A stretch of 64,000 nt of DNA, taken from IMG/VR virus record IMGVR_UViG_2061766007_000941, positions 5,679 to 69,678 of that record. The stretch is one strand, 5' to 3'. Of the stretch, positions 21,301 to 51,607 are shown in pieces. Within the stretch, counting starts at the first letter, position 1. Every line of letters begins with the position of its first letter. This stretch comes from a virus. Its lineage: Duplodnaviria; Caudoviricetes. The position numbers and the translations under genes are program-made. The notes beneath the pieces were generated by a model. The model did not search any database and was not told where the DNA came from. It saw only the letters and a list, made by a program, of their open reading frames with translations.

Positions 21301-24300
21301 CCATAGTAATTGTTTTACCATTATCATAGATATCATCATATTGTTTAGCAAAGTCTATAATAGATTTATATACATCAGTCTTCTTGAAATCATCTAATGA
21401 TTCTTCTTTATAGTTTCCAACCTCATATAGATATGCTGCTATATCTTCAGGTTTGCTACCTTCATTTAATCGACTCAAGTCTAAATTCTTTGGGAGCATA
21501 TTCTTGAATCGATCATCCATTTGGCTTTCAATGAATTTTACTTTACTTGATAGGCTCCCATTTTGAAAAGCTTCAGGGTTTTCCTTAACAGCTTTCATTA
21601 TCTTATTGTAAGATTCTTCAGATAATTCCCCAGATTTCTTAAGGTCTGTAAATACTTGCATTACTACAGGATCTGTTAAATCTATTTGAGATACTTTATC
21701 TTTTTGTACTTTTAATAATACATCAGACATTGTAGTCAAATAATTATATGCTGCAGTTGCTTTTGTATCTTTTACATTCTTTAAATCTACTTTAGCAATA
21801 TAACCTTTAGCACTTAAGCCTAAGAATATTTCTCCAGCTTGTTTAGGAGTTATGAAAGGTTTATTATTACTATTCTTACCTTCAGATTCAACAGTAGATA
21901 ACTTATGTAGTATAGAAGATATTACTGCAGTCTTTTGTCCTTCAGTAACATTAGTATCCATTAAACCTTTTGATAAGTTATTAATAATTTCAATCTTATC
22001 TGCTTTAGATGCTTTAGTAGTTAAAGCTAATATAGATTGATGGATTAAAGTATTTACTGTAGAAGTATTTAAATAATCTATTTGATCAAAGTATGGTTGA
22101 ACTTTATAAACTACTTCACCATTTAAATCAATCTTTTGTAAGTAACCTAAGTCTGCAGAAATGTCTAATGCAATTTCATTAGCTTTATAATCTTGAGTTC
22201 TTTCTCCAGAGTTTGGTAAGTATAAGTATTGATTATTAGCAGCAGTAGGATCTTGTTCTTTAAGTTTCTCAAATAAAGCTTCATTCTTTTTAGCCATTGT
22301 ATAACCTGTTTGAGAAATTAAATCTTTACCACTAACTTTATCTCCAATAACTTCTTGAGCTTTCTTAATATAATTTTCATACTCTTGTCCAACTATTACA
22401 TTCTTTAATTGTTCAATAGTTGCATCAAAGGAACTATTCTTAACTTCTTGAGCTTGGAATGTTTTCTTATCTCCAGATACTCCTGTTAAGAAGTCTGCTC
22501 CTCTCTTTATAGATTTTAAAGGAGAAGTAAATACAGATATTAAGGAAGGTTTTTCAAAGTCAGCTGGGTTAGAATATTTTTCAATACGGGCTAACTTAGA
22601 AGCATATATTAATTCTGCATTCTTATAAATTTCTTTTAATCTATCTCTTTCTGCTGTGATTCTAGATTCATCTAATACTTCTCTTAATATCTTAGGAACA
22701 TCTTCTCCAGGTTTCTTTAACCCTTCAGATAATTGATCCATAGCATATAAGATCTTTCCTTCATAGGATACAGCATCAGGAGCTTGTTCTAAATCTCTAA
22801 TATATTTATTTTTAACTTCTATTAATGCAGCTTGTTTCTCACCTTTAGCATTAGCTATTTCAGAATCAAACTTAGAAAGTAATTGTGTATGAGATCTACC
22901 AATAGTTTCTAGTCCTGCATTCCATTCTTTTATTTGGCTTCGTGTTGAATACCATAAAGTATTAATTGCAGAACGAGCAACATTCTCAAAGCTTAAACCT
23001 TCACCAACTGCTTTAGCAATATTGAAGTCTTTAAGTTTACCATTCTCATCTAATCCAGATAAACCTGAGATAGAACCTGTTAACATATTACCTGCAAAGT
23101 CTGCAGCTGAGTTAAATGCAATAACACCTGCTCTAGATAGTAAGTATTTCTTTAATGTACCTTTAACATTATTACTTAGTTCTTGTTTTAAACCTTCACT
23201 AGTTTTTTGAGTAATTAATCTGTGTACTTGTTTTGCCCAAGCTTTTTGAGCAGTATCACTAAATACTCCAGCATCTCTACCAAAGTATGCTTGGAATTGA
23301 TTATCATCCATACCACCAGATATGAATGTATCAATAGCTAAGTTAATACTATTAGTAACTACCGATCTTTTAAATATATCTAAATCACTTGCACCTTCTT
23401 CATATAAGTGTGCAGTTGTAATATTCTTTCTTGTATCATTAAGCATGTTCTTAGAGTTTGCTACGAAAGCAGCTCCGAATCTTCTACCCCATACTTGAAG
23501 GTTTGCACTCTTCCAATTTCCAGCTAATAAGTCTTTAGTGGCATTAATTGGACCATGTGCCATAGCACCTGTATTAGTACCAATGTTACCTGTTTGCCAT
23601 TTAAGTACTGTACCAGTTCCTTTAACTATCTTACCTCCGATAGTATGACCAGATGCTTCTAATCTTTGACCCCATCCCATTAGACCTGTACCTTTTGTTG
23701 CGGCAGATGTTGCAGTACCTGCATCACCAACTGCACCTATGATACCTGCTAATGTCATAGTACCAGCGATTGTACCAGCCATTGAACCAATGAAGTTAGC
23801 TACATCTTGTCCTGATACAGATGAGTCTAGGTCAACATAACCTGTGTCAACTAACCAAGGTACATCATCATTAAGCCAACCATCAAAGCTATTAGACCAT
23901 TCAAAGAAGTCATCACTATCTATGCCATCCCAGAATCCTGCATCTCCTCCGAAGACTGCTGATATAGGAACTGCTGATTCAATAGTGTTTAATGCAATTA
24001 GTCCTAGGTCTGCAATACCAGTAAATACCTTAGCAAATCCTGATGATGCAGATCTACCAAAGGAAACTAATCCATTATTATTTAAATCTATTCCTTCGAA
24101 TGAACCATCTGCTTTTTGTTTTAATGTTCCATGACCTTCTCCACCTTTACCATCTAGTACATAAAGTTTTCCATCTGTATGTAGATAGTAGTATGTTCCA
24201 GTAGAGTCTTGAGTCATTCTTGCTTGTGCAGCGATTGATCCATTATGTAATGCTTTGAAGAAATCCTCATCACTTAAGTTTTCCTTAAAGTTCTCCATTT

Positions 24301-25072
24301 GTGGAAATAAATTTTGAACTTTATCTGCATCCATGTCATCAATCTCTTTGCCTACAAGGTTAGCAAGCTGAGTTTCTCTAATATCTGAATGTGCATATTG
24401 TCCAGCTAATCTAGCTTGGTGATAATTCTCAGCAGCTTGTTTAACTTGTGACATTAAGTAGTTATTAGTAAATGGGTTCGAGAAGTCATTGTTCAAGAAC
24501 TTATTTTGCCAGTAAGCTACACTAGTTACATCGTAACCCATAGTTGCAAGGATATCTCTACCATATGCTTCCATTAAGGCATCATCATATGAGATTTTTC
24601 CCTCGTCTACTTGCTTGAAGATTTGATCATATCTTTCTTGAGCTAGTAGTTCTTCATGTGCATACTCATAACCTGGTAATGGAGAGCCTCCTTGGTTGAT
24701 GTAGTTTGTGTAAGTATCTGTGTAGTTACCATTTTCGTCCATCAAGTTAAGTTTGGACATTATCTCATCTCTAGTAGTGAACCCATTAGAGAACTCTGAT
24801 TTCTCTAGGTCTACTGGTTTTGAGATTTTCAATGTAGGTTCTGTGATGGTAGGTATACCAGCAAGAACATTATCCATTGCTTGTTGTCTACTAAAGTTAG
24901 ATTCCTCTTCTAACTTTGTGACTTGTTTCTCTATTTGGTCCTGTTGTGTTTTGTTCGGAGCAAACCCAAGATTAATATCTGTGGTTGTGTCCGTGTTGAT
25001 GTTTACTGCCGCTAGGTTATTGTTATCATCCACTTGGATATTACCTAAGCCAGTAATGTCATTAGATTTCAT
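9359..25072 (-). CDS. Giant (~5,240 aa) polyvalent protein: putative virion-packaged two-barrel RNA polymerase with DEDDh exonuclease
   Basis: ORF track 9359..25114; the RBS GGAAGGAGG favours the start at 25072. LGSRDFDGDH at nt 16001-16015; GYKIATDIGGKGVV at ~14447-14488; FDTET/GYN..EAD/HSGLYD exonuclease motifs at ~17210-17780; hydrophobic Gly/Ala segments near both ends. Confidence 0.72.
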   Translation of the reverse strand: MKSNDITGLGNIQVDDNNNLAAVNINTDTTTDINLGFAPNKTQQDQIEKQVTKLEEESNFSRQQAMDNVLAGIPTITEPTLKISKPVDLEKSEFSNGFTTRDEIMSKLNLMDENGNYTDTYTNYINQGGSPLPGYEYAHEELLAQERYDQIFKQVDEGKISYDDALMEAYGRDILATMGYDVTSVAYWQNKFLNNDFSNPFTNNYLMSQVKQAAENYHQARLAGQYAHSDIRETQLANLVGKEIDDMDADKVQNLFPQMENFKENLSDEDFFKALHNGSIAAQARMTQDSTGTYYYLHTDGKLYVLDGKGGEGHGTLKQKADGSFEGIDLNNNGLVSFGRSASSGFAKVFTGIADLGLIALNTIESAVPISAVFGGDAGFWDGIDSDDFFEWSNSFDGWLNDDVPWLVDTGYVDLDSSVSGQDVANFIGSMAGTIAGTMTLAGIIGAVGDAGTATSAATKGTGLMGWGQRLEASGHTIGGKIVKGTGTVLKWQTGNIGTNTGAMAHGPINATKDLLAGNWKSANLQVWGRRFGAAFVANSKNMLNDTRKNITTAHLYEEGASDLDIFKRSVVTNSINLAIDTFISGGMDDNQFQAYFGRDAGVFSDTAQKAWAKQVHRLITQKTSEGLKQELSNNVKGTLKKYLLSRAGVIAFNSAADFAGNMLTGSISGLSGLDENGKLKDFNIAKAVGEGLSFENVARSAINTLWYSTRSQIKEWNAGLETIGRSHTQLLSKFDSEIANAKGEKQAALIEVKNKYIRDLEQAPDAVSYEGKILYAMDQLSEGLKKPGEDVPKILREVLDESRITAERDRLKEIYKNAELIYASKLARIEKYSNPADFEKPSLISVFTSPLKSIKRGADFLTGVSGDKKTFQAQEVKNSSFDATIEQLKNVIVGQEYENYIKKAQEVIGDKVSGKDLISQTGYTMAKKNEALFEKLKEQDPTAANNQYLYLPNSGERTQDYKANEIALDISADLGYLQKIDLNGEVVYKVQPYFDQIDYLNTSTVNTLIHQSILALTTKASKADKIEIINNLSKGLMDTNVTEGQKTAVISSILHKLSTVESEGKNSNNKPFITPKQAGEIFLGLSAKGYIAKVDLKNVKDTKATAAYNYLTTMSDVLLKVQKDKVSQIDLTDPVVMQVFTDLKKSGELSEESYNKIMKAVKENPEAFQNGSLSSKVKFIESQMDDRFKNMLPKNLDLSRLNEGSKPEDIAAYLYEVGNYKEESLDDFKKTDVYKSIIDFAKQYDDIYDNGKTITMEGNKIYIDLNTFRGKTTQDFTDYLFRVGSSNIKNIGNAKEYAKYESDLYNDMNKLTQWSKQNSSLIMFDLDTNPEDYINFMREFGYDVAGKNPQEIKQLTGHIKGVKSFTGNTVVLNVPRVNNIEELKDQLATKSSITIGKLTYDLNNKIFEDMKGNKLQTIDIERAILDQVELKNIDPKLQLTLKEAPLLQLIPFEKSKDGKYNFSMPIAQAMLGNVENLRKLSGKLAGQTGKDLTYLLTKSAGSPVKYNSQLENYFICELLVDNIFKSDYTNIRLSKDEVKWLEDNNYADGHRATSKKYADNIWKVSGRTLSNGNDSYYLELKPGITKDKVMDYVVSENFNIHKLIPLQLQELKEQGEQGIIDAFATHTTEGLKQALPGHNRETGFDILNMRLPWDDEENSRYVKFLNEVINKEGDFNPIEGAGYVREDVSHETFEDWYEYAKTSKNPYDIMTKLYVDAFNELTHQSDSSEYENHRILIKNKTTRNILLDSITENGGKVTTELVNKLKAYFEPITDGERRVYGTPNSKSTIPGYYVGKAGNPDETYVSSERMAAALGSWDNVEVKGDTAWVNMKTVQDAVDMIKSIMTQEDNQYRQAFFTEHVVTKYVEDDPTRLLKGIIGNDGYIPIQDIDEVADMLAENYKQAMDNRDVSFKVKETLIPTLKELWGSKYNDVVDSIFAEAKKHTKLAQKQMEVSQKHVVNNGPSLVDDAYAGIGSLPVKVGDEYINAKDGLDSDHNRMFKYIQNSIADIDDDKTKAFNKLINTSEDLLDNEFYDTLTNGILEDRNLYTSAPYASDVERYSYAHNAMGHMKTVLNTFDELKETFKDANTEELMHTAATLVNLHQGVEYAGETANYFIVKNGSLKDGNTDLLDKYSSANYNDLLFNLHKAKEELKGCTIIKADSQDIGNTAALKLSYMNLDENFDDFVTDLYRHFIMDNSYYLRRGTEYKDVTQLEQDIFGGNINPERVQELLNKVPVDNLSSIQRNRRIYDIFRERAEVAHISKGEFFNLMKDGDPVTMNSAVRDAVENSIDTVDEYRTNNKAVRSLVNLSYGLGNIDNMTPERRQLVTDIKNAINLIEEDGKNYTPQEQAERLILKSLVDKEDAPTIDFLVRDRSLLDMKKEYESNDLKDGFTINYDNDKPARLNTKELLDLVKSFDDNTIQSKYNTIVSFDTETSLKMDAKDYDEGVFNIGVNVKTRTKDGWETKHYNIFVNYESNNMTEAAKTKLREQWIKDNIDFNSSFYKDNKGYRDTVEMYKNIYDHIDDSTLYLKPSEVKEFFNEYAKEGSILLGYNTTEADVPWMKTGNMFDDELLSKFTHVDVKTLSDNSQAIETKNSGKKDIRAEEFELINQGAHSGLYDADVTQDMFAKVVNATFNLKSIRDFLYLDLKKTLDENNIKLSDDQLESVLRKVDDKIKDAQLKQPSLKDYFDYDKSITTDTVTAATDIFEYMMNKRYAATAYAIKDQQVMDNYLSSKALQSLSDNKQLVINKLWSYAKANDIPKDKFINAIRIEMKSSGTDMNSLLETLGNEARVERIMTNLGIDPSQIEDEVATYKLFDTDPYKDKDLDPKQFQKYKALKNNKDFVDTFHEITKALRFSNTADEQDFLSDMATICSFRNGVNPKDLLGNDIKLINTKISNMYMDYLRNNYGDVDAVIAQSKKGLYDLIDALPVGKEINTGANNAVVADSSMVVLSPNQFRNLMGREYDPIKDAELYSQLLIHPADANDKILPRRIVVDTTLKGNYMLVPETVIETLGSRDFDGDHLILLKPEDYTQDVLKLYTNEKYKVHNIQENVLDYLRSNGVYYDGYKEKNLIINTIGKDEQIIKLCKDADALLEKGIIPNEKTFLDKTEEFTDYIAKNYPEADIKKVLKDLWLVATDFDIELDEKGKYKVKGFVEKTLYEDTGSVAPIRYINNPAIYASDTNREVTLNGKTYSVPVTFSGQERLRAEDSQLVNKYLYNFIDQTTGVNEKYAINKLKNKTINNAWTDLLAAGIYGSNTVAKYFDNIDPNNKELIDGLGDRIIEAVSKSYKGSPYYSDIENIMKPSINEMTKDLENGYISAAFNKYDQMLRRIEEAQLTSMDPTGLNEALMSDKMIQQYAIMQDRIKATQKNIELYNELAKTQFYLPSDNSLYGQAVDYNLNSLINKLVTDNSDSYNKNIFRDSKPVKAFVITHYGKSETPIGIGEDTVLINNKGKDKENQLAGYTLKKYTIGPKDKLANLEIGKYYKAGTKITTGKNPMTLNRLSRIAGAKGNTVYVQQIDFLDNGYKIATDIGGKGVVNGTFSTDADVSILLNKPDPSKLSIGSNKAMDTTETAITLRDSNGKKITAYGFYTEATPKIVEDTHAWEKDRERNVDALHVVMNANTINSFFMFGGKIEDGKLVTNPEDYADLRNSVWKPYKDVQNENFLGVYNRAKISYIINRLTDKELQDAFHTTMDANKLRHNLTNNMYLATDKYTSIAYTLGLKFKDKIDDPIGERLFSEAGLALLGDYGRSRAEGTDPFGAYSKNDITSQTNMNADGSTNLSTYKGRTVHLSPDEMNVGKGMTNHEDYYLSPYDFFTLLNGGVSSINSYKVKEMYKQGLLPYSTFVENTANMENNFRNWSSKYTTQDNELQKFIPQSQSRKTGLVTNKADRLGYRPVEVSLTEPETKEVNNTRQQGISPELINLMISGETDLKGNYAKVAMMLYQLQNLNPTDTIEQKRLDLSDSKKLYQIYDSHLAVQWGDDGKPNIVLSKNVPITGTLKELQQQTKNTVWNYSTYNALRNSRVNSETLDAKALDENINKDRYRMSTKKYDKELDNIYSSLKNDLIDERTGEVKDNFKVSDYNTESKIAPARILSGGEESVLEKSVWGRQGLKEDTELGAELTVAMKNQSAGALYIEQEPMAILNNFKQIAMSRMSDNEIKEYTVCQALFNAREDSSINEALKYHGYNNLNEVAEKLQHFDQMYPEVGAAFKQHLESLKNLSAMVSKETGEPLEHCLMGMIAPYKSTSKSYNQAKAASAIKNALGLQRFNPVSQENKQASTLEFDLWNSSESIIKELSKMHSAKVIKDTLINGDMLKNDTLLDGVSNLLDKVVSESDDKTYLRDNPAAKEIQEQTLNVINDLTGMEFATGVDKTTFKQYRDMYSKVDMRLDLLIDKFIETTNRSDLRSYTDFERVANDSNETLEVKNSAKTIANFYYAKMLIGQSMIQSSTDFANRMGSYIEALKQDGYSLVNAYGQKYVKGGVVNPWSSSSMANLVENMEISYNSYNDTMWNQFILEKIISGDIYLMRNDIADHLESHIYTTKIPNNTMKTLKEISKWSSALQMALPSKILNRLISFTGFDYSMGIMYDPNTIKYMGPARRELLAAFQSKGTQMSDELKEYMMREGQPIGLTGKDPVTFSEDISGPDKVMRVLNTLTDPLEFQNHLGRYAIYLAAKESFDNGKPNYGPMYFAKDAIDSLDNNADKAMMVMDYMLGSPGGFPELSKKTSGLMLYATFPMNFARTMGAYGMSLGKLFKEGFTSDNADQWIKTAAVPSMGLAGITGLSMLITSWICDLFGIEEDEKDKMVKELSTIDLVGTVISGSPQKSGSSMNPVENVNSMFIEPFTNPYNKTLLEKIFGAVNTNITSHLNPAIKVPVEVMSGYDIYGSSLMNTKYQYDRIENGMRKVLGFVIGSNTANSIVDQYKFDKYSDDSTFTSSLMKGARRGIASSLGNQKTYKKDTTNYYNRLTDLKNYKYKLSDGTYSDEVEDYIEADSMERIRNTKSRYGSYNKDDYQEMNNMLKKMLKNKVEPATVYAYIISQYNNGVSETTIKSVLNNHSIVRKLESLTDKQAYFNTLNSKEYKDLLRAIQYENEFYPLLQELFPNKKSTSVYLPKRTKYYNKTYSGSGSSYPKSYYPKKAPYVTYYPNNGYNNKKVQFNKPYGSINKINVEVSPQMGVWKNDYNETQSLNTYNKNKNQGPVKLLDQEESYINNPYYNNLSDYQKRKKVS

Positions 25073-25122
25073 ATATTTCCTCCTTCCACTCTCGGTGGTC
25101 ATTTGGATTACCATCCAATTAA

Positions 25123-25131
25123 ATTATATCA
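25123..25131 (-). promoter_or_regulatory. Extended -10 (TGaTATAAT) upstream of the giant gene
   Basis: Overlaps the stop of the 57-aa ORF; followed by two short hairpins and the RBS. Confidence 0.5.
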
Positions 25132-25302
25132 TTTCTTTGTCTTCTTGGCTATTATACTCTGTATTTGAGCCATGGATAACCAATGTCGTTTTCCGGTCTT
25201 ATCTGTAAGCCTCCATCTAGGAGTCTTGCGTGATTGGTCTGGTTGTATTTCTCTGTATACTTTACCATCATGATAAAGATAACCCTTGCCGAATGTGATC
25301 AT
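25129..25302 (-). CDS. Small basic protein, 57 aa (MITFGKGYLYHDGKVYREIQ...IIAKKTKK), not in ORF track
   Basis: AGGAGG-5nt-ATG, open 174 nt, promoter 25 nt upstream. Confidence 0.75.
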   Translation of the reverse strand: MITFGKGYLYHDGKVYREIQPDQSRKTPRWRLTDKTGKRHWLSMAQIQSIIAKKTKK

Positions 25303-25327: not shown

Positions 25328-25356
25328 AGTATAGCACTTCTGTCCACTGAAGTAAA
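25328..25356 (-). promoter_or_regulatory. SigmaA-type leftward promoter
   Basis: TTTACT-17-TATACT with TGc extension; spacer contains the GTGGACA half-site. Confidence 0.6.
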
Positions 25357-25363
25357 CGAAAAG

Positions 25364-25400
25364 TGGGAAAAATTGTCCCCATTGGGAAAAATTGTCCCCA
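25364..25400. repeat. Tandem 18-bp quasi-palindrome TGGGAAAAATTGTCCCCA x2
   Basis: Exact copies at 25364-25381 and 25383-25400; related copies at 26667-26687 and 26709-26719. Confidence 0.85.
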
Positions 25401-26423: not shown

Positions 26424-26663
26424 AGTACACAAGTGTGGACAAATGCGAAATTCAAAATCTGAATCAAGTGTATTAAACTTTTTATTCTTACTAATTTTTC
26501 TCAATTATTTTTGAATTTATTAAATGTCCACACTGAGTGGACAAGCTATAAAGCCCCATTCCACCTAGGTTTCTACTATAGTGTACAACAAAAACTACAA
26601 AATCTCTCCACACCTGTGGTCCACTAAGCACCCCCCATCCTTATTGGTCCACACCTATGGACA
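26424..26663. promoter_or_regulatory. Cluster of five TGTCCAC-N4(5)-GTGGACA-like palindromes
   Basis: 26424-26441, 26525-26543, 26570-26587, 26605-26622, 26646-26663. Confidence 0.7.
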
Positions 26664-26777
26664 AAATGGGAAAAATTTTCCCACTTTACCACCATAAAGT
26701 GTAAAGTAATGGGGACAATCCGCCCCACTAATAGGTTAAGTTACACCTACCAAAAGACAACTAGAAAGGAGAAAGGT

Positions 26778-32015: not shown

Positions 32016-33449
32016 ATGGCAAAGAAAGTAAATAAAAGTTTAGCAGAAGAACTTAAAACATCTGCAATCATTTGGAGTGGTGTTACTAATAAAGATAACA
32101 CTAGAGTTTTCATAGTTAATTTTAATAGCAATCATCATGTTGTTCTTATAGAAGAAACAGAAACTAATATAGTTTATTATGCACCTAAAGAAACTCTTGC
32201 TCTTAAGGCAGAGATAGGTAAAGCATTATATGAAGTTCACCCTGAACTTAAGAAGAAAGATGTAGGTGCAATTCCTACTACTTCATTCACTGGTATTGAA
32301 GTTGTTGGAGATGATAATGAATTATGTTTCTCTAAATCTATTAAAGTATTATCTGAATTAACAGTAAGAAATGCTTTAGATAAAGTTGGTATAGATACTA
32401 CTAAGTATGCTTATACTAAAATTAATGTAGATAATTCTCATAATCTTAAGGAAGCTTGGGCTACACATGGATATAAGAATTATTCTCAAGAAGTTTTAGA
32501 TCTTATGACTGATGTATCTAAGTATAAAACTTATACAATGGATAAGATTGATGAATATGAAATGATGGATGCTGGTTGTTATCTTGGTATGGTAGCTGCT
32601 GGTCCAGCTGGTACAGGTAAATCAACAGATCCACTTATCTATTGTGCTAAGGAAGAAATTCCTGTAATAGTATTTCAATGTACTCAAGGTACAGAAGATG
32701 ATGCTATCATCGGTAACTTCATTCCTAATACTGAAGGTACTGGATATAAATTAAAGAGAGGACCATTAGCAAATGCTATTGAACAAGATTGTTGGTTAGT
32801 CATTAATGAAGCTAACTATTGTCCTTCTGGAATTTTATCTTGTTTAAATAGTATTATGGATGACAATGGTCAAGTGTTATTGGATGATGGAACTATGTTA
32901 CATCGTGGTCCTAACTTTAGATTAATTCTAACAGTTAACCCTGGATATAGAGGTACTAATCTATTTAATGAGGCTACTCTTAATAGATTTGCTACCGTAT
33001 ATTATCCACCAATAACAAAAGATACTTTAATTAAGAGATTATCTTTTGAATCTGGTTATAAGAATAAGAAAGTTTTATCAGCTGTTGCAGAACAATTTGA
33101 TAAACTTAGAAACATATATGAATCTCGTAATATGGAAACAGAAGTAACATATAGAAATGCTATTCGTTTCTTAAAGATGAGATTATTAAAACCAGAAGTA
33201 GATATTGTTAAACAATTTGATATGGCATTTATCACTAATGCTATCTTTGAAATGAATGATATCACTACTGAGTTAAATGATTTACAAGAAATCAGAAAGG
33301 ATATGGTTTCTGAAATAGAACAAGCTTTAGCAGATGGTACTGAAGAAGCTAAAGAAACATCTTGGTCTTGTGATATTGGAATTGATTTAGATGATTTAAC
33401 ATCTCAAATAGGTGAAGATGGTTCATTCTTAGATGATGAGGAGGAATAA
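32016..33449 (+). CDS. MoxR-type AAA+ ATPase (CbbQ/NirQ/CobS-like)
   Basis: GPAGTGKS, GPLxxAI, Walker B region WLVINEAN, TVNPGYRGT, NEATLNRF. Confidence 0.8.
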   Translation: MAKKVNKSLAEELKTSAIIWSGVTNKDNTRVFIVNFNSNHHVVLIEETETNIVYYAPKETLALKAEIGKALYEVHPELKKKDVGAIPTTSFTGIEVVGDDNELCFSKSIKVLSELTVRNALDKVGIDTTKYAYTKINVDNSHNLKEAWATHGYKNYSQEVLDLMTDVSKYKTYTMDKIDEYEMMDAGCYLGMVAAGPAGTGKSTDPLIYCAKEEIPVIVFQCTQGTEDDAIIGNFIPNTEGTGYKLKRGPLANAIEQDCWLVINEANYCPSGILSCLNSIMDDNGQVLLDDGTMLHRGPNFRLILTVNPGYRGTNLFNEATLNRFATVYYPPITKDTLIKRLSFESGYKNKKVLSAVAEQFDKLRNIYESRNMETEVTYRNAIRFLKMRLLKPEVDIVKQFDMAFITNAIFEMNDITTELNDLQEIRKDMVSEIEQALADGTEEAKETSWSCDIGIDLDDLTSQIGEDGSFLDDEEE

Positions 33450-35310
33450 TATGAAGACATATTCTATTGACAAGATTGTGAATGCTATCTTATCTTTAGA
33501 TAGACTTCATAAGATGAGTAACTTTGCTACTTCAAAAGTTGGTAAAGATGTTAGAGTTATATCTCTTAACTCTGATGCTTGTTATTCTTCATGTGATTAC
33601 TGGGACGGAATGAGAATTCAGTTAGGTAATCAGTTTTATCCTATTGCTTTTGATGATAGAGCTCCTGTACCTGCTGTTGATTTAAAAGCAAAGTATAAAC
33701 ATATAGCTATGATAATGTATGGTGCATATTATCATGAGTTATTTCATTTATTATATACACCATTTGGTTATGCTACAGATTTATTATCTGGTTGTAATCA
33801 ATACTTCCAACAATTTGTACATACAGTTGCTAATATATTGGAAGATCAAACTATAGAAGGTACTGGTATGAATAGATATCCTTTCTCTGAGAAATATATT
33901 ATGGCAACAAGAGAAGTATTTAAACTTCCTAATACTCTTAAACTTATAGAAGAGTCTATTACTGAGGAACCAGATAATCCTGGTACAATGTTAGGATATC
34001 TTCTACATTTCTGTAGAGGTACTGACATGTCACAATTCCCTGAATATAAACTTTGGAATGACCATAAAGAGTTTATAGAATGGGGTGCTTATAAGTGTAT
34101 CAATACTATTGACCCACATTTAAGAGCTAAAAGACAAGTTGCTTATGGTCTTGAGCTTACTAAGATACTTGATATGAAAGAACCTGAGAAGAGCAATGTT
34201 GAAAGTCCTAACTTATCTAATCTTGCTTCTGATTCAAGTGGATTTAGTAAGTCTTCTTCTGGTAAAGGTATGTCTGCTATTAATAAATCAACTGGTAACA
34301 TGGGTAATGAGAATGCTGAGCGTACTATGCAAGGACAAACTCAACCTCAAGAATCAGATGAGGATGCTGCTAAACCACCAGAAGAAATGAAAGAAGTTAA
34401 AGCACAACATGGATCTGGAGATGGTGAATGCCCTACAGATTCTGGTGATTTAACTAAAGCTGGTATTACTCAATTAGCAAATGATGAACCAGTATTTGGT
34501 GAAGGTCATTATGCTGATAAGATATCTAAGTATATCAAGACAGAGAAATACCTACCTGAATATAATAAAGTTGTTAGACTATTTGAAACTCAAATAAGAA
34601 ATGTTGTTGCTATCATTCGTAAGATGTATGCAACTAATAATGCTAGTTGGAATCATTATAAAACGAAAGGCAAACTAGATATGTCTACAATCTATAAGAA
34701 AGGTAACTATAAAATCTTCAAGAAAAAGAATGCTCCAGCTCCAACTGCTGATTTAGTATTTGAAATACTTGTAGATAATTCTGGAAGTATGACAGGTACT
34801 AAAGCTAAGTTGGCTGGTAAAGCATTAATTATTTTCTGTGAAGCATTGAATAGATTACATATACCTTTTAGTGTAGATTGTTTTACTGAATCAAGATGTG
34901 CTATCACTATATCTTTAAAAGATTATGATGAACTATATGATAAAGTAAAAACAAATATGACTTTATTTACTGAAGGTTATGATGTTCATGCACTTAACAC
35001 TTGGTGTGGTAATGTGGATGAAATCAATCTTAGATATGTTGCAGATAAACTATCACAAAGATTAGAGAAAGACAAAGTTCTTATTGTAATTAGTGATGGT
35101 GCAACATGTGGAAGTTGGAAAACTCTTAAGAAAGTTGCTGATAATATAGCAGCTACTGGAGTTACTATGTTAGGAATTGGTATCTTTGATAGCAATGTTG
35201 AAATGATATATAAGAATTCCATGATTGTAAAGAATGTAGAAGACCTACAAGGATTAGGTACATTCTTAAATAACTATTTAATTAAAAAGATTTTTAAAGG
35301 AGGAGAATAA
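33433..35310 (+). CDS. vWA-domain partner protein (CobT-like)
   Basis: MIDAS DNSGSM, LIVISDG; N-terminal HExxH (YHELFH); adjacent to the MoxR ATPase. Confidence 0.8.
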   Translation: MMRRNNMKTYSIDKIVNAILSLDRLHKMSNFATSKVGKDVRVISLNSDACYSSCDYWDGMRIQLGNQFYPIAFDDRAPVPAVDLKAKYKHIAMIMYGAYYHELFHLLYTPFGYATDLLSGCNQYFQQFVHTVANILEDQTIEGTGMNRYPFSEKYIMATREVFKLPNTLKLIEESITEEPDNPGTMLGYLLHFCRGTDMSQFPEYKLWNDHKEFIEWGAYKCINTIDPHLRAKRQVAYGLELTKILDMKEPEKSNVESPNLSNLASDSSGFSKSSSGKGMSAINKSTGNMGNENAERTMQGQTQPQESDEDAAKPPEEMKEVKAQHGSGDGECPTDSGDLTKAGITQLANDEPVFGEGHYADKISKYIKTEKYLPEYNKVVRLFETQIRNVVAIIRKMYATNNASWNHYKTKGKLDMSTIYKKGNYKIFKKKNAPAPTADLVFEILVDNSGSMTGTKAKLAGKALIIFCEALNRLHIPFSVDCFTESRCAITISLKDYDELYDKVKTNMTLFTEGYDVHALNTWCGNVDEINLRYVADKLSQRLEKDKVLIVISDGATCGSWKTLKKVADNIAATGVTMLGIGIFDSNVEMIYKNSMIVKNVEDLQGLGTFLNNYLIKKIFKGGE

Positions 35311-39675: not shown

Positions 39676-40032
39676 ATGATTACTAAAGGAAAATTCTTAG
39701 AGTTACTAAAGTCTTTAGACCCAGACCCTAATTTTCATACAGCTATTATTCAAGAATGTTTTAAGAAACTTCCTGATGCTGTTGCTTGGAAATTATCCAG
39801 ACAATTATATCTAGAATATTTTTGGGATGGTGACAAATATAGGATGAAAAATAATATCACCGGTGAAGAATTATTGTTTAGTTCTTATACAGAAGCTGTA
39901 CAATACTTAACTAAGTTAGGTTATAAAGCTACTAACACTGGTGTTGCTAATGCATTTAGAAGTCGTTCTAAAGATTATTGTAACCATACATTTTATAATG
40001 ATAAAGAAAAAGAGATTACTTATTTTGAGTAA
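39676..40032 (+). CDS. Protein with C-terminal NUMOD1-like HTH; own extended -10 (TGaTATAAT, ~39648-39656)
   Basis: FSSYTEAVQYLxxxGY...GVANA pattern; AAGGAG RBS. Confidence 0.45.
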   Translation: MITKGKFLELLKSLDPDPNFHTAIIQECFKKLPDAVAWKLSRQLYLEYFWDGDKYRMKNNITGEELLFSSYTEAVQYLTKLGYKATNTGVANAFRSRSKDYCNHTFYNDKEKEITYFE

Positions 40033-41554
40033 TCCCTTTTCTTATCAAACTATTTAATCTTAAATAACTGCATGCTATTGAGCTTGCATTTTTTAATGCT
40101 TCATCAATAGATTTATAACTATCTAATATACCTTCATCATAAAGGTTTACTATTTTATTATTTCTTACATCCACACCGGTTCTTTTATTTATAAGATATT
40201 TTCGTCCGGGGATATTTTTTATACCTGCATTATTTAATATTTGTTTCATTGGTAATCTTAATAATTTTCTAATAGAAATGTTATTCATTTTTAAACTTAT
40301 GTTATATAAAGTTTTGCCCCCACCTAGAACAACTCCGTTCTCGAGTGCCATTCTGACAGCTCCGATCGCATCATCTAATTTTAAATGTAGAGTTTTGAAT
40401 TCTGTTACTGTAGGAACTCCTACTTTAATTTTAACTACCCCATTCTCTAAAGCTCCAAGTCTTTTAGTATATAAAGCTTCATCTACTCCACTTAATTTAT
40501 ACTTCTTATCCAGCTTCTTTTTATATTGTTTGATTCTTTCTGGTACAAGTTTATTCTTTTCACAGATAAATAAGCTTCTGTCGATCTCAATTACCACATG
40601 ATCAGCATGACCACAGTATTCATACTTATAATCTCCAACGCCATTGCTGGCATCTTGAACTACTCCATTAGTTACTGCAGCTAAATCCATGTACACATCA
40701 TCCATCTTAGTTTCATTAACGAATATGAATTGATACTTGAAGTTATTCTTGATTAATGTATCAATCAAAAGTCTTAATGTATTAGGATTGAATGCTGGAT
40801 TCAATACAAACACAAATGGATTCTTGATTTTATCTTCAGGTATACTCTTGAAGAATTCACCTAATCCTACTTGAGTCATAACTCCTTCTTTTAATAATAC
40901 TATGTTACAGTTATCAGCTTCCCACTTCTCACCGTCATCACATAGAGCTGCCATTGCATCACTCATGTAACCACTATCTATTGAGAATCCCTTAGTTTGT
41001 TCTACTTTAACTCCAGATCCTTCACGATCATGTTCAATAACAATGTTCATTCCAGCTCCACATTTCTTGTAAGCTTCTTCTACAATCTCACCAACCATAG
41101 GAATCTTAGTACTAATAGTTGCAATACTTTTAACATGTTTAGGTTCCATCTTGAACTTTTCCATTTTAAGTTTCTCTCTAACCATTGCAACTTCATGCTC
41201 TATTTGATCAGCTACTAATTGTGGATGTTTACCACGCTTGATCATTTTATATCCGTGATCATATAATGCATTAGTTAACAGAATAGTTAATGTTGTACCA
41301 TCTAATGCTTCTTTTTCTGTAGTCGCAGCTGCTTCGATCATATCTACTGCGATCATCTTTTCCATTCCATCTAGATGAATCGCTTGACGAGCTACAGTTA
41401 CACCATCATCTGTTAGTGTACACTTACCAAAGTCATCATCTAATGCAACCAATAATCCTTTAGCTCCCATTGTAGGAACTACCATATCATTTATCTTTTG
41501 GAATGTTTCCTTGATCAGACTTTGTGCCTGATTCTTTTTCTTTATCTCTAACAT
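40016..41554 (-). CDS. groEL: Chaperonin GroEL (Cpn60)
   Basis: TMGAKG, TDDGVTVA, LDGTT, VKIKVG, KLDDAIGA, GVVLGGG; no C-terminal GGM tail. Confidence 0.92.
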   Translation of the reverse strand: MLEIKKKNQAQSLIKETFQKINDMVVPTMGAKGLLVALDDDFGKCTLTDDGVTVARQAIHLDGMEKMIAVDMIEAAATTEKEALDGTTLTILLTNALYDHGYKMIKRGKHPQLVADQIEHEVAMVREKLKMEKFKMEPKHVKSIATISTKIPMVGEIVEEAYKKCGAGMNIVIEHDREGSGVKVEQTKGFSIDSGYMSDAMAALCDDGEKWEADNCNIVLLKEGVMTQVGLGEFFKSIPEDKIKNPFVFVLNPAFNPNTLRLLIDTLIKNNFKYQFIFVNETKMDDVYMDLAAVTNGVVQDASNGVGDYKYEYCGHADHVVIEIDRSLFICEKNKLVPERIKQYKKKLDKKYKLSGVDEALYTKRLGALENGVVKIKVGVPTVTEFKTLHLKLDDAIGAVRMALENGVVLGGGKTLYNISLKMNNISIRKLLRLPMKQILNNAGIKNIPGRKYLINKRTGVDVRNNKIVNLYDEGILDSYKSIDEALKNASSIACSYLRLNSLIRKGITQNK

Positions 41555-43014: not shown

Positions 43015-43257
43015 TTATTCTCCTCTTTCTCCTCGGAACTCTAACTTCAATAAGTCTTCTGTCCATATCTTACTAACATATAGGTTGTATGCTTTACCAT
43101 GATATTTAAATTTACATTCAACATCACACATATCATACCCACAAATATTACCCATTCTAATTACTTTAGTTACTTTCAAACTACTTATACATTTTTTTAA
43201 ATCTTCTAAAGTCCCCCTGAAGTCATAGTGACCACTAGCTAAAATCTTCTGAATCAT
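43015..43257 (-). CDS. Hypothetical protein
   Basis: 80-aa ORF tiling between neighbours. Confidence 0.5.
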   Translation of the reverse strand: MIQKILASGHYDFRGTLEDLKKCISSLKVTKVIRMGNICGYDMCDVECKFKYHGKAYNLYVSKIWTEDLLKLEFRGERGE

Positions 43258-43510
43258 AAGCTAGTACATCTGCCATGTCTACAATTAAGTAGTTAGTACC
43301 CTTGTAACTTAAAGGTAATGCAGCATACAATGGGAAGTATACTACATCGTTTTCACTTATGTCATATAGTTCATAATTTTTAACAATTACTTTACCTTTT
43401 ATGACATCTTTGCGTGACTGAGTTTCATTAGTAATGCTAAGTCCATTACCTAGCTCAGTTTGTGTGTCCATTTGTTGGACTAAGATCTTGTTCTTATTTA
43501 CTTTGATCAT
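43235..43510 (-). CDS. groES: Co-chaperonin GroES
   Basis: 91 aa; NKILVQ, mobile-loop-like TELGNGLSIT, KGKVI, NDVVYF, YLIVDMADVLA. Confidence 0.8.
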   Translation of the reverse strand: MIKVNKNKILVQQMDTQTELGNGLSITNETQSRKDVIKGKVIVKNYELYDISENDVVYFPLYAALPLSYKGTNYLIVDMADVLAYDSEDFS

Positions 43511-48390: not shown

Positions 48391-48406
48391 AGTATCACCT
48401 ATGTAA

Positions 48407-48447
48407 ATTATACCATAGTAGATAAATCTCTTCAATAATGGTATAAT
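48407..48447. promoter_or_regulatory. Overlapping divergent sigmaA promoters
   Basis: Minus: TTGAAG(48435-48430)-17-TATAAT(48412-48407). Plus: TAGATA-17-TATAAT(48442-48447). Both have TGg extension and form a 10-bp inverted repeat. Confidence 0.7.
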
Positions 48448-48458
48448 GTAGGCAGGAG

Positions 48459-49106
48459 ATGATGAGTATGCAAAGAACATTTGCACCAGACATCATCACA
48501 ACTAAAGAGAACCTATTAACTGCACTTCGTAATGGAGATATTAAGACATCTAAATATAATCTATTGAACGAAGAGGAAAAGTTATTCGTTGAATTAGTTG
48601 TGTTTGGTGATTATAATGCTGAACAAGCAATGATGTCTATAAGAGGTAATGATTATCATAAAGGTATGGGTAACAGAATCTGTGCTAGACCTAATGTAGC
48701 AGATGCCTTAGAAGAATTATCTTATAAAAAGAATAAGAAATTTATGGCTGAGGTTACATCATCTAGAGATGCAGCACTTCGTAAGCTTATGTATATAATG
48801 AATACTACAGAGGATGAAAGTGTAGCTGCTGCCTGTGCCAAAACTATATTAGATAAAGCTGATAAGATCACTACAGAGAAAGAAGCTGCTGATGCAGTTA
48901 ATGCTATTCAATTTAATATTAATCTAGCTCCTCAACCTGTTGATGTTAATAATCCTAAGGTTGATCTTGATGCTCCAATCATTTATGATGTGCAAGATTA
49001 TGATGAAAAGGTTTCTACAATGCTCCCTAAGAAGGAGGAACCTAATGCATCTGGTTTAGATTTTAAATTAAACTATTCTGCTGTTGATAATTACTCAGAC
49101 AATTAG
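48459..49106 (+). CDS. Terminase small subunit-like protein
   Basis: LNEEEKLFVELVVFGDYNAEQAM...GNRICARPNVADALEEL resembles the TerS HTH (LTxKQxxFVxEY...NAxQA...GxRLLxxPxV). Confidence 0.65.
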   Translation: MMSMQRTFAPDIITTKENLLTALRNGDIKTSKYNLLNEEEKLFVELVVFGDYNAEQAMMSIRGNDYHKGMGNRICARPNVADALEELSYKKNKKFMAEVTSSRDAALRKLMYIMNTTEDESVAAACAKTILDKADKITTEKEAADAVNAIQFNINLAPQPVDVNNPKVDLDAPIIYDVQDYDEKVSTMLPKKEEPNASGLDFKLNYSAVDNYSDN

Positions 49107-49112
49107 TATAAT
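49084..49112 (+). promoter_or_regulatory. SigmaA promoter for sRNA-3
   Basis: TTGATA-17-TATAAT overlapping the TerS stop. Confidence 0.7.
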
Positions 49113-49118
49113 ATTTTT

Positions 49119-49216
49119 GAGAGAATGCTCTCTCACCCCAAATCTATGAACTCGGTAATAAAATAATGAAAGAAGGTGAATACCTCTCCCTTCCTATATT
49201 ACCCGGGTTCTTTTTT
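49119..49216 (+). ncRNA. Putative ~98-nt sRNA (sRNA-3)
   Basis: 5' hairpin TGAGAGA-atgc-TCTCTCA; long stem GAACTCGGTAATA/TATTACCCGGGTTC followed by T6; no RBS-linked ORF. Confidence 0.55.
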
Positions 49217-49224
49217 ATTGCACG

Positions 49225-49337
49225 AAAAAAGGAACCGTTCGGCTCCCTTTCGTGTCGATCCTTACGGATTTGTTGAAGATTAACATGATCACAACAACGA
49301 CAAGACCTTTAACTTAGAGAGGCAGGTTTCCCTACCT
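49225..49337 (-). ncRNA. Putative ~112-nt structured sRNA (sRNA-1)
   Basis: Perfect TTGACA(49372-49367)-17-TATAAT(49349-49344); GGTAGG-GAAA-CCTGCC, TTGTTG-16nt-CAACAA and ATCC-GTAA-GGAT hairpins; terminator GGAGCC-GAAC-GGTTCC-T6. Confidence 0.75.
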
Positions 49338-49361
49338 ATAACCATTATAAGGTATGTACAA

Positions 49362-51326
49362 TTATTTGTCAATCAATGTATCTCCATCAACTATCAAGTT
49401 ACATTCCTCTGCAATCTCAGTTTCAAATCTAGTTGAACGAACTGATTTAAATCCATTAAGCTCACACCATAGTGTGTATTCAGAATATATTTCATCAAAC
49501 TTTTTACTTTTAAGATACGCCGTTGTAATCTTCTTAGCATTAATCCAACTAAGAACACTTGAGTTTTCAATCTTATATTCTTGCATAATTTCTTTAACAC
49601 TATCTGGCATTGTAAACTCATGACTAGATGTAAGAACTTTTTGAATTGCATACATGCTTTTATAAGCTATATACTCTAAATCTTTCATTAAATCATCATG
49701 GAACTTTGCTCCATCAACAAGACTTACTTTACTTAAGTTTGCATTGAATGGAATGATTATTAATTTTCTATAGAAACCATAACTTGTATCTGGTGTACGA
49801 GGTAACTTGTTTGCTGAGAAGAATAATGTCGCAAACACGGTGTCCGAGAATGGATGTGCATTCTTTCTCTCTATAGTTATTTCATCTCCACCACATATTT
49901 GTTTAAATAGGTCACTATCTTTTAAAGGTTGTGCTGATATATCACCACTAAGTGATACCAATCTATTGTGTAATTCAGCAACTCTAAACTTTTCTCCTAA
50001 ATCTTTAAATGAAATACTGGTACAATTTTCTCTTCCAGCTATTTCCTTAATGATATCTAGGAATGTACTCTTACCATTTCTACCTCCACCATATAATAGA
50101 AATGCTTTATGTAATGCTTGAGTCTTTAGGAAACTATATCCGATAGCTTCATATAATAATCGCTCACAGTCTTTATCTCCACAAGTGGCTGTAGCAAAGA
50201 AGTCATCAGCTGTAGGTCCCACAGCATCTGGATTCCAGTTAACATGTAACTGAATTGTTTCTAAATGTTCTGGACTATGAGGTTCAAAACTCATATCCTT
50301 TAAGTCTAGTCTACCATTTAAGAAAGAAACTTTGAAAGGATCTTTATTAAATTCAGTAGGACTAAGCTCTAATAAATTATTTAAATACTTTATTACTTCA
50401 ACTTTTTGAAAGTCTTTTAACATAGGGCAGAACTTTGTAATCACACCCTTAACATAATCATCATTACTTACATAAAGACCTTTCTCCTCATCATAATAAT
50501 ATAAGAGTTTAGTCTTTGCATCCTTTTTAATCTTTAGGAAATCTATTAGGAAATTTCCCATTAGGTCATGTTTAAATGTAGAACCATCAAAGAACTTTTG
50601 CTCTGGAAGGTTCTCATTATTACTAGGTCGTAGCATTGTATCCTCCATCTCTTTTTCAGATAAAGGACTAGTTGCTACATATTTATTAATTAATCTAATG
50701 CATTCAGTTCTTTCATCAGGAGATAAGTTTGTAGTCTTTAATCTCCATAGTTGTCTATTATAAGTATCATTTCTAGCTTCCTTTAAAGGAAATTCTATGA
50801 AGTTATCCTCTGGTTTCTTACCTCTTTTAAATATAGGTGTTAACCAGAATGGCAACTTCTCAATACCATTATAATAAATAACCTCTCTATCAGATAATTT
50901 CTTACTGGTATTTATTCTTGGGTTTTTAAAAGCTGTTGTTATAAATGACTTTCCATTGCAATGTACAATAGTGTCACAGAATGCTCCAACAGCTGTAATA
51001 TTACAGACAGTTTTTATATTGTAATCACTCTTGGCATAGATGTGCATACCTCTATGTGTTTTAACACACATAACTTTTTCTTTTCTGTCTTGTATTATTT
51101 TAAAAACTATATCAGATGTTGTCCTGTCATCAATATCTATAACAATATATCCTTCAGGAAGTAGCCACCCTATTTCCATATCAGGTTCTGTGTTTGCAAT
51201 CTTAACTATTTCAGTGAATGTCAGAGGAGTTAGCTTTTGTCCGGTAACCGGTTTGCCTTCATGTAATCTTACATAGCCAGCACGGTTGCCATTGTACTTC
51301 TCATTAAATTCTTTAAAAGTTATCAT
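49362..51326 (-). CDS. Primase-helicase (prim-pol N-terminus, P4/D5-type SF3 helicase)
   Basis: VIDID and KTHRGMHIY primase motifs; YGGGRNGKST Walker A; FSANKLP. Confidence 0.88.
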   Translation of the reverse strand: MITFKEFNEKYNGNRAGYVRLHEGKPVTGQKLTPLTFTEIVKIANTEPDMEIGWLLPEGYIVIDIDDRTTSDIVFKIIQDRKEKVMCVKTHRGMHIYAKSDYNIKTVCNITAVGAFCDTIVHCNGKSFITTAFKNPRINTSKKLSDREVIYYNGIEKLPFWLTPIFKRGKKPEDNFIEFPLKEARNDTYNRQLWRLKTTNLSPDERTECIRLINKYVATSPLSEKEMEDTMLRPSNNENLPEQKFFDGSTFKHDLMGNFLIDFLKIKKDAKTKLLYYYDEEKGLYVSNDDYVKGVITKFCPMLKDFQKVEVIKYLNNLLELSPTEFNKDPFKVSFLNGRLDLKDMSFEPHSPEHLETIQLHVNWNPDAVGPTADDFFATATCGDKDCERLLYEAIGYSFLKTQALHKAFLLYGGGRNGKSTFLDIIKEIAGRENCTSISFKDLGEKFRVAELHNRLVSLSGDISAQPLKDSDLFKQICGGDEITIERKNAHPFSDTVFATLFFSANKLPRTPDTSYGFYRKLIIIPFNANLSKVSLVDGAKFHDDLMKDLEYIAYKSMYAIQKVLTSSHEFTMPDSVKEIMQEYKIENSSVLSWINAKKITTAYLKSKKFDEIYSEYTLWCELNGFKSVRSTRFETEIAEECNLIVDGDTLIDK

Positions 51327-51607
51327 TCAAATAATTCTTTCAATTGATCAATGCTTCGTACTTCCATAGCAACACCTCCACTTTCTCTGATTAATTCTAG
51401 TTTTATTTTTTGCAAATCACTTAGAACTGATCCTTGCTTTAATTCGAATGCATAGAACTTACCCTTGTGACAGCATATGATATCAGGTTCACCCTCTAAT
51501 TGATAGGATGACACATGTATCTTAATAACATATGCTCCAATACTATGTAGATAATTTATTACTTTTGTTTGGAACGCTGACTCAAGGGCAACTTTTCTTT
51601 TTACCAA
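51323..51607 (-). CDS. VRR-NUC nuclease (Holliday junction resolvase-like)
   Basis: ESAFQTKV...GEPDI...FELK. Confidence 0.85.
   Translation of the reverse strand: MVKRKVALESAFQTKVINYLHSIGAYVIKIHVSSYQLEGEPDIICCHKGKFYAFELKQGSVLSDLQKIKLELIRESGGVAMEVRSIDQLKELFE

Follow-up and report, generated by a model that had tools for sequence, protein, structure and literature searches.

The small cis-antisense RNAs of phages, such as P22 sar and lambda OOP, are transcribed from the strand opposite their target, are fully complementary to it by construction, and repress a phage gene at or near its start. In Firmicutes, Staphylococcus aureus RNAIII and RsaE, Bacillus subtilis RoxS and Listeria LhrC pair with G-rich Shine-Dalgarno (SD) sequences through pyrimidine-rich loop or linker motifs, several per RNA, and end in an intrinsic terminator. 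The prophage small RNA (sRNA) DicF depends on Hfq in a Gram-negative host, and c4 RNA, which serves immunity in a temperate phage, is cut out of the transcript that also holds its target, from a place just upstream of that target. The c4 RNA of P1 and P7 (immI) is a structured phage RNA whose loops pair around the ribosome-binding site (RBS) of a phage message and block its translation, and DicF of the Qin prophage and similar prophage sRNAs are short trans-acting RNAs that pair at the translation start of a distant message (PMC12197685). Here we analyze a predicted sRNA, sRNA-1, encoded in a 64-kb stretch of phage DNA (the window) out of a 69.7-kb IMG/VR viral contig. A preliminary description of the window had proposed that sRNA-1 acts in trans to block translation of a 57-amino-acid (aa) open reading frame (ORF) of the same phage.

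The locus shares with c4 the proposed loop-to-RBS pairing against a phage gene. What defines c4, however, is a position upstream of its target in one operon, release by processing, and the pairing of two of its loops with two icd/ant leader sites, whereas sRNA-1 has its own promoter and terminator, a target 24 kb away in another module and transcription unit, no match to an Rfam model, and a window free of lysogeny genes. Membership in the c4 family was rejected on the grounds of the separate transcription unit, the distant target and the missing model match. DicF is processed from an operon transcript and targets the host gene ftsZ, whereas the best target of sRNA-1 is a phage gene. As the Firmicute sRNAs with C/U-rich, SD-masking loops are generally described, sRNA-1 resembles them too, but those are chromosomal genes with CCC or UCCC motifs, whereas sRNA-1 is viral, carries a U-rich AUCUUC with G-U pairing and would form 27 base pairs (bp) in one lineage. 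Unlike sar and OOP, it is encoded 24 kb from its proposed target. A cis-antisense RNA was rejected, since the plus strand opposite sRNA-1 (49225-49340) is free of genes, the convergent 215-aa ORF ending at 49106. Covariance models from Rfam 15, including those for C4 antisense RNA, 6S and known Firmicute sRNAs, gave no hit at gathering thresholds anywhere in the window, and a permissive scan of 48900-49600 returned only chance-level hits (E = 0.3-10), none of them on the sRNA. Neither the sRNA region nor the target region had a nucleotide match in the phage collection. sRNA-1 therefore appears to represent an RNA family without an Rfam match, of a known functional kind (RBS-masking antisense sRNAs), with a target that is partly supported.

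The sRNA-1 gene and its homologues

sRNA-1 is very probably a real, independently transcribed and structured sRNA gene. Its parts, and the gene immediately before it, are as follows.

49362-51326, minus strand: D5-type primase/helicase gene, immediately preceding sRNA-1
49372-49367, minus strand: -35 hexamer TTGACA, overlapping the last codons and the stop of the primase/helicase gene
49349-49344, minus strand: -10 hexamer TATAAT, exactly 17 nucleotides (nt) from the -35
49225-49339, minus strand: predicted sRNA-1 transcript of ~112-115 nt, its 5' end placed from the -10 and its 3' end from the U-run
49336-49321, minus strand: helix 1, GGUAGG-GAAA-CCUGCC, 6 bp with a GAAA loop (hairpin and covariation)
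49298-49320, minus strand: single-stranded U/G-rich linker, highly conserved in the alignment
49305-49298, minus strand: 3' part of the linker, UCUUGUCG, forming the second helix with the target in the duplex prediction
49270-49297, minus strand: helix 2, a 6-bp stem (49297-49292/49275-49270) with a 16-nt loop (49291-49276), from covariation
49269-49258, minus strand: small GNRA hairpin AUCC-GUAA-GGAU, an insertion that this phage and lineage L002 have and the remaining six lineages lack
49225-49247, minus strand: intrinsic terminator, a 7-bp stem (49247-49231) with a GAAC loop followed by U6 (sequence and fold)

The promoter scores 12 out of 12, one of only two perfect sites within 40-56 kb, in agreement with the TTGACA-17-TATAAT promoter first proposed. 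No minus-strand ORF of at least 30 aa lies between the primase stop and the terminator, and with a promoter and a terminator of its own the locus reads, at the level of sequence, as an independent transcription unit. At that same level the non-coding transcript of about 112 nt with two GNRA hairpins and an intrinsic terminator was borne out. The predicted fold has an energy of −37.5 kcal/mol (z = −4.0), and none of 200 shuffled sequences was as stable; the minimum free energy (MFE) fold of the single sequence draws the helix 2 region differently. Among the few strains available, compared over 48400-51400 with contigs from four DNA runs, the sole difference inside the sRNA was the terminator-loop C at 49237, which is A in four other strains.

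Homologues of sRNA-1 stand directly after the primase gene in seven further lineages, giving eight in total, with primase identities of 65-100%:

Lineage E (locus L361): primase 90% identical to that of this phage
Lineage L002 (locus L002): 84%
Lineage B (loci L014/L015): 79%
Lineage C (loci L010-L013): 78%
Lineage F (locus L362): 75%
Lineage G (locus L363): 70%
Lineage D (locus L036): 65%

Primase homologues were frequent in assemblies; a single-protein search of IMG/VR found only two primase relatives. The TTGACA hexamer is identical in all eight lineages despite differences in the C-terminal primase coding sequence, and the spacer is exactly 17 nt in each although its own sequence has diverged; the -10 is TATAAT in six lineages and TATACT in two. 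Because the distance from the -35 to the primase stop codon differs in lineage C, it is the hexamer that is conserved, not merely the coding sequence that it overlaps. The predicted RNAs are ~100-115 nt long across the family.

In the eight-lineage alignment, 86.6% of cells are paired under the three-helix structure, compared with 38-57% when the 3' partners are slid, and eight pairs change on both sides (covariation score 0.39; none of 500 shuffles scored as high). From the MAFFT alignment, RNAalifold predicted helix 1 only; we set helices 2 and 3 manually before counting their pairs. Helix 1 is paired in 100% of cells, with changes on both sides in three of its six pairs, and in D it has been replaced entirely (GGAUAU/AUAUCC) and still pairs. 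Helix 2 is paired in 89% of cells and has two pairs with double compensatory changes, with U-A/G-C in G and D instead of G-C/U-A. The terminators of the relatives differ in sequence and keep the stem and the U-run. The conserved promoter, the fixed spacer length and the three covarying helices argue strongly that sRNA-1 is a functional structured RNA driven by its own promoter.

We also looked for the RNA outside these loci. Exact 18-mer and loose gapped pattern matches in IMG/VR and in species genomes, including contigs of Ruminococcus metagenome-assembled genomes, were set aside as chance, and no host was deduced from them. When the pattern matches were scored with the sRNA profile in nhmmer, all were rejected except the loci already known.

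Complementarity to the start of the 57-aa ORF

The match between sRNA-1 and the start of the 57-aa ORF is more than a random 14-mer and is statistically outstanding in this genome, because of the gap in start-site rank, the shuffle results and the wobble-only differences. The proposed target lies 24 kb downstream of sRNA-1 on the same strand, at the head of a block that includes the 57-aa ORF and a giant ORF.

25129-25302, minus strand: 57-aa basic ORF, conserved in nine lineages (ORF reading and homologues)
49293-49275, minus strand: 19-nt sRNA segment complementary to the target, with 14 Watson-Crick pairs and then two G-U among the last five
25312-25294, minus strand: target helix A, 19 bp, covering the SD GGAGG (25312-25308), the spacer, the AUG (25302-25300) and codons 2-3
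25291-25284, minus strand: target helix B, CGGCAAGG in codons 4-7, 8 bp with 49305-49298, two of them G-U
9359-25114, minus strand: giant 5251-aa ORF (5290 and 5330 aa in relatives) with a DFDGD motif, as in two-barrel RNA polymerases

Reading the sequence confirmed the gapless 19-nt pairing, with two G-U pairs, to the SD and AUG; the target coordinates given earlier, 25313-25295, are one base off and should be 25312-25294. That 16 of the 19 nt lie in a hairpin loop holds for the covariation-supported hairpin and is not drawn so in the single-sequence MFE fold. Both mismatches are wobbles, as claimed, with U in the sRNA opposite G. To this 19-bp match our analysis adds a predicted second, collinear helix of 8 bp, and the full duplex (19 + 8 bp) has a predicted energy of −38.7 kcal/mol. 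All four non-Watson-Crick positions among the 27 bp place an sRNA U opposite a target G, so each difference keeps the pairing.

With the loop alone, the start of the 57-aa ORF ranked first of 79-83 start sites (−28.2 kcal/mol, vs. −16.8 for the runner-up) in incomplete lists drawn up by a simple SD-plus-ORF rule; with a crude accessibility term it reached −16.6 against −5.9 for the next site. The 19-nt pattern with up to three mismatches was expected 0.02 times and found twice. The best contiguous-helix score was reached by one of 2000 dinucleotide-preserving shuffles of the RNA within start-site windows, and by three of 400 dinucleotide shuffles genome-wide on both strands. In this genome, the match to a translation start is thus beyond chance, and its seed lies in a region predicted to be accessible.

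It could still be argued that there is no functional relation between sRNA and target: the RNA would be the 3' end and terminator of the primase message behind a fortuitous promoter, and the match a chance event or what is left of a translation start once duplicated in inverted orientation. In 64 kb of AT-rich DNA, chance alone does predict an exact inverted match of 14 nt somewhere, this one was chosen post hoc from several candidate sRNAs, and there is no RNA run among the listed sequencing runs that hold this phage, the last two points also telling against repression of the 57-aa ORF. We nevertheless consider such an absence of function highly unlikely. The promoter is kept with a fixed spacer in eight lineages, also where it sits at another distance from the stop codon; a start-site match this good has a shuffle p of ~5e-4; and all four differences preserve pairing by wobble. 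A recent duplication is unlikely because the pairing elements of the sRNA (UCUUGU, UGUG, AUGU and AUCUUC) are ancestral to the family.

The pairing was then followed into relatives, for which the start sites of the small ORF in B and C were reached by walking along contigs with exact-protein look-ups, and that of D through its IMG/VR record. Single-protein searches of IMG/VR had found no relative of the 57-aa ORF or of the N-terminus of the giant gene, and an alignment-based search for the small ORF found phage D only. Five near-identical strains keep the target site, with a single substitution inside it, ATC to ATT (L028/L029), which is synonymous and turns a G-C pair into G-U. A small ORF of 72% identity keeps the ACAUGAUCACAUUCGG stretch, and in the sRNA of lineage E the 11 nt opposite the start codon and codons 2-3 are retained. 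L031 is only tentatively paired with lineage E, through a shared ENA sample and the similar coverage of the two contigs. When the eight sRNAs were crossed with ten orthologous start sites, only those of this phage, E and L002 were predicted to bind the window-type site strongly (−38.7, −31.8, and −27.3 kcal/mol, respectively). Within the close clade, the evidence for target conservation is mildly positive.

Several observations weigh against a lasting sRNA-target pair. The L002 seed has three substitutions, one of them opposite the G of the AUG; its target was not recovered among the five start sites obtained from a metagenome scan for the small ORF, none of which came from the L002 sample. 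Farther out, each orthologous start was scored with the lineage's own sRNA:

Lineage B: 8 bp, rank 11 of 54, loop only
Lineage C: 11 of 13 bp, rank 32 of 56, loop only
Lineage D: 10 bp, rank 16 of 93, loop only

Pairing in these three lineages is centered on the SD and the extended match is not kept. Outside the clade of this phage, cognate pairs were no better than non-cognate ones, and a CopraRNA-like combination of ranks across four genomes singled out no orthologous gene as a target that is consistently at the top. U/G-rich RNA also pairs promiscuously with A/C-rich coding starts, for which −13 to −20 kcal/mol is background. Finally, the sRNA sits in the replication module and its target in the virion module, and these two modules recombine independently of each other. 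Over its N-terminal 800 aa the giant gene has 36-66% identity, compared with 78-79% for the primase, and in C the two values are 36 and 78%; because the giant-gene N-terminus diverges so much faster, the modules are mosaic, and a fixed partnership across 24 kb would be fragile for that reason.

The best sites of the relatives lie elsewhere. B has its best match, of 13 bp, at the convergent neighbor gene's start, and C and D have theirs, of 10 + 9 bp, at the start of a 165-aa ORF. D also has a 12-nt perfect complement of the conserved loop, AAGAUGACAUUA, over the start codon of a 149-aa ORF after a PemK-like gene (G001), a site found by pattern search only and not by the SD-plus-ORF list; the B and C orthologues of this ORF pair with the sRNA linker instead, over 8-10 bp. 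All of the relatives' own best sites have energies within background.

The proposal that sRNA-1 blocks translation of the 57-aa ORF in trans is thus partly supported: the conserved sRNA gene and the outstanding match in this phage speak for it, and the limited pairing in B, C and D speaks against it. Complementarity conserved in relatives, which had been named beforehand as a test, was found only in the closest clade; in B, C and D what pairs at the SD is no more than 8-13 bp. The claim that the match is notable beyond a chance 14-mer was upheld by the shuffled controls and the start-site ranking. Because only SD-proximal pairing remains in the distant lineages, the specific target would be lineage-specific.

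The conserved loop and its likeness to the anti-SD

In all lineages the loop begins with UG and ends with AUGU, 1-2 nt and AUCUU, followed by the C of the stem, and its 3' half is conserved. Loop size varies from 16 to 22 nt and the hairpin is weak. B, C, D, F and G have ~15 nt of the loop in common, UAAUGUCAUCUUCAA, nearly invariant; E has C for the first A of AAUGU, this phage has UA for the single C, and L002 has AA there. We take the Firmicute 16S 3' end to be GAUCACCUCCUUUCU, so that UCAUCUUC is UCACCUCC with two C-to-U changes. Because the end of the loop resembles the anti-SD core with U for two C, it can, on predicted base pairing, bind extended SDs of the GGAGGUGA type (GGAGGU(GA)) through G-U pairs.

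Where primase identity is down to 41-52%, the relatives have different promoter-to-terminator units in this place, with unpaired CCUCCU-type stretches, and this phage encodes a second candidate sRNA.

L038, L039, L040 and L364 (2282-2386): unrelated units just after the primase gene; L039 has two, one with 12 nt identical to the 16S 3' end
43661-43565, minus strand: sRNA-2, ~60 nt, with a perfect TTGACA-18-TATAAT promoter and a terminator

The unpaired middle of sRNA-2 holds CCUCCUUUCUA, 11 nt identical to the Firmicute 16S 3' tail. Because the syntenic units and sRNA-2 hold unpaired stretches of anti-SD type, SD masking looks like the common theme. In D (L036, 4596-4700) a second mini-unit is inserted right after the sRNA-1 homologue, with a TTATAAT -10, a UUCUCCUUAGAGC stretch and its own terminator.

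These features bear on a reading in which the RNA is real and its conserved job is to mask, generally or at several targets and through the conserved loop and linker, the SDs of other phage messages or of host ones (for shut-off or reprogramming of the host), the long match to the 57-aa ORF being a recent lineage-specific extra or of little regulatory weight. It would explain why the 3' half of the loop, ~15 nt, hardly varies among B, C, D, F and G although the orthologous targets differ, and why the best site of each relative falls at a different gene; GGAGGTG is found at 6-8 start sites per genome, and the syntenic units of distant relatives have 10-12 nt identical to the 16S 3' end. The alternative phage targets, however, are not conserved across lineages either and have energies within background, whereas the 57-aa ORF match of this phage is far outside it. 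We regard this reading as somewhat unlikely. A broader version, which we rate as unlikely, has the clade and its distant relatives use a set of anti-SD-mimicking sRNAs for general timing or host takeover, with sRNA-1 as the U-for-C version alongside sRNA-2 and those syntenic RNAs that match the 16S 3' end over 10-12 nt; a few substitutions would then suffice for a single lineage to turn the loop on a new phage gene, as at the 57-aa ORF.

The same likeness to the 16S 3' end, seen in the sRNA-1 loop and in sRNA-2 (43661-43565), could also mean that sRNA-1 acts without pairing to messages, either titrating, as a decoy or sponge, some protein or nuclease specific for the 16S 3' tail or CU-rich RNA, or in replication beside the primase. 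Its single-stranded sequence is strongly conserved without a conserved phage target, and its position directly after the primase gene is fixed in all lineages. Yet no protein partner or motif was identified, and such a role leaves unexplained 27 bp of collinear complementarity whose mismatches are all wobbles, so that we judge it improbable.

Genome context, proposed mechanism and significance

The phage is carried by Logan contigs from bovine-gut metagenome runs. The clade is one of uncultured ~70-kb phages of the bovine rumen or gut, and its expression signals (GGAGG SDs and sigma-A consensus promoters) are of Gram-positive type. Its replication genes occupy the minus strand from 64000 to 40016 and include a family-A DNA polymerase, an SNF2 helicase, a PD-(D/E)XK nuclease and the D5-type primase/helicase. 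GroEL- and GroES-like proteins (40016-41554 and 43235-43510, minus) and a pair of MoxR (AAA_5) and VWA/CobT-like proteins (32016-35310, plus) are also encoded, all conserved in relatives.

sRNA-1 sits in a 250-nt gap between the primase stop and the convergent 215-aa ORF (48459-49106, plus). On the plus strand, a TTGATA-17-TATAAT promoter at the stop of this ORF is followed by a long hairpin and a T-run (49084-49216); in L002 the equivalent promoter near the stop is TTGACA-17-TATATT. The terminator-like hairpin (~49130-49216) could belong to a third small unit, tail-to-tail with sRNA-1, or merely be the terminator of the 215-aa ORF.

The product of the 57-aa ORF has no family match in Pfam or PHROGs. 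In relatives the promoter of the small ORF is of the extended -10 type, and for this reason both partners would be made by the host polymerase. A GTGGACA half-palindrome lies inside this promoter, and the same GTGGACA-N-TATACT arrangement precedes the GroES-like gene (~43545); tandem copies of GGGGACAATTTTTCCCA occur at 25345-25400 (minus) and 26620-26720. The stop codon of the small ORF carries a further candidate signal:

25131-25123, minus strand: TGATATAAT, overlapping the 57-aa ORF stop, as a candidate promoter of extended -10 type for the giant gene (sequence in this phage, B, C and D)

TGATATAAT is found at this stop in most lineages (L022, L023, L116, and L031-L034), and the stop-Tyr-Asn reading recurs in further ones. 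Transcription of the giant gene thus probably starts from a separate promoter and does not depend on the small ORF, which makes it doubtful that the 57-aa ORF opens the virion/RNA-polymerase transcript, as had been supposed. Because the giant gene seems to be separately driven, repression would act on the small protein itself.

Transcription, in vivo pairing and repression are steps that we infer, and they would proceed as follows. Host RNA polymerase of sigma-A type would start sRNA-1 at the consensus promoter overlapping the primase stop codon, early in infection, and stop ~100-115 nt later at the intrinsic terminator. Its fold would comprise a hairpin at the 5' end, the U/G-rich linker in single-stranded form, a weak large-loop hairpin, and the terminator. 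In this phage, as in the strains nearly identical to it, loop and linker would pair with the SD, the AUG and codons 2-7 of the 57-aa ORF (19 + 8 bp), occluding the 30S binding site and so repressing translation of the small protein, perhaps with subsequent decay of the message. In distant lineages only SD-proximal pairing would remain, and the family-wide function would be SD masking of some phage or host messages. That sRNA-1 is made early and blocks 30S binding at the 57-aa ORF in this lineage, through its loop and linker, is in our view an evenly balanced proposition.

To our knowledge, trans-encoded sRNAs that regulate a phage's own genes come from only a handful of phages, mostly temperate ones of Gram-negative hosts. 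sRNA-1 would represent a family without an Rfam match among uncultured ~70-kb phages whose signals are of Gram-positive type, and its 27-bp duplex between loop and start site offers a clean, testable pair. The relatives with drifted loops form a natural series that could show how sRNA targets are gained and lost as phage modules recombine. If the target reading is false, the conserved RNA still needs explaining; if it is true, RNA-based control of translation would be added to the repertoire of phages with a giant virion RNA-polymerase-like protein.

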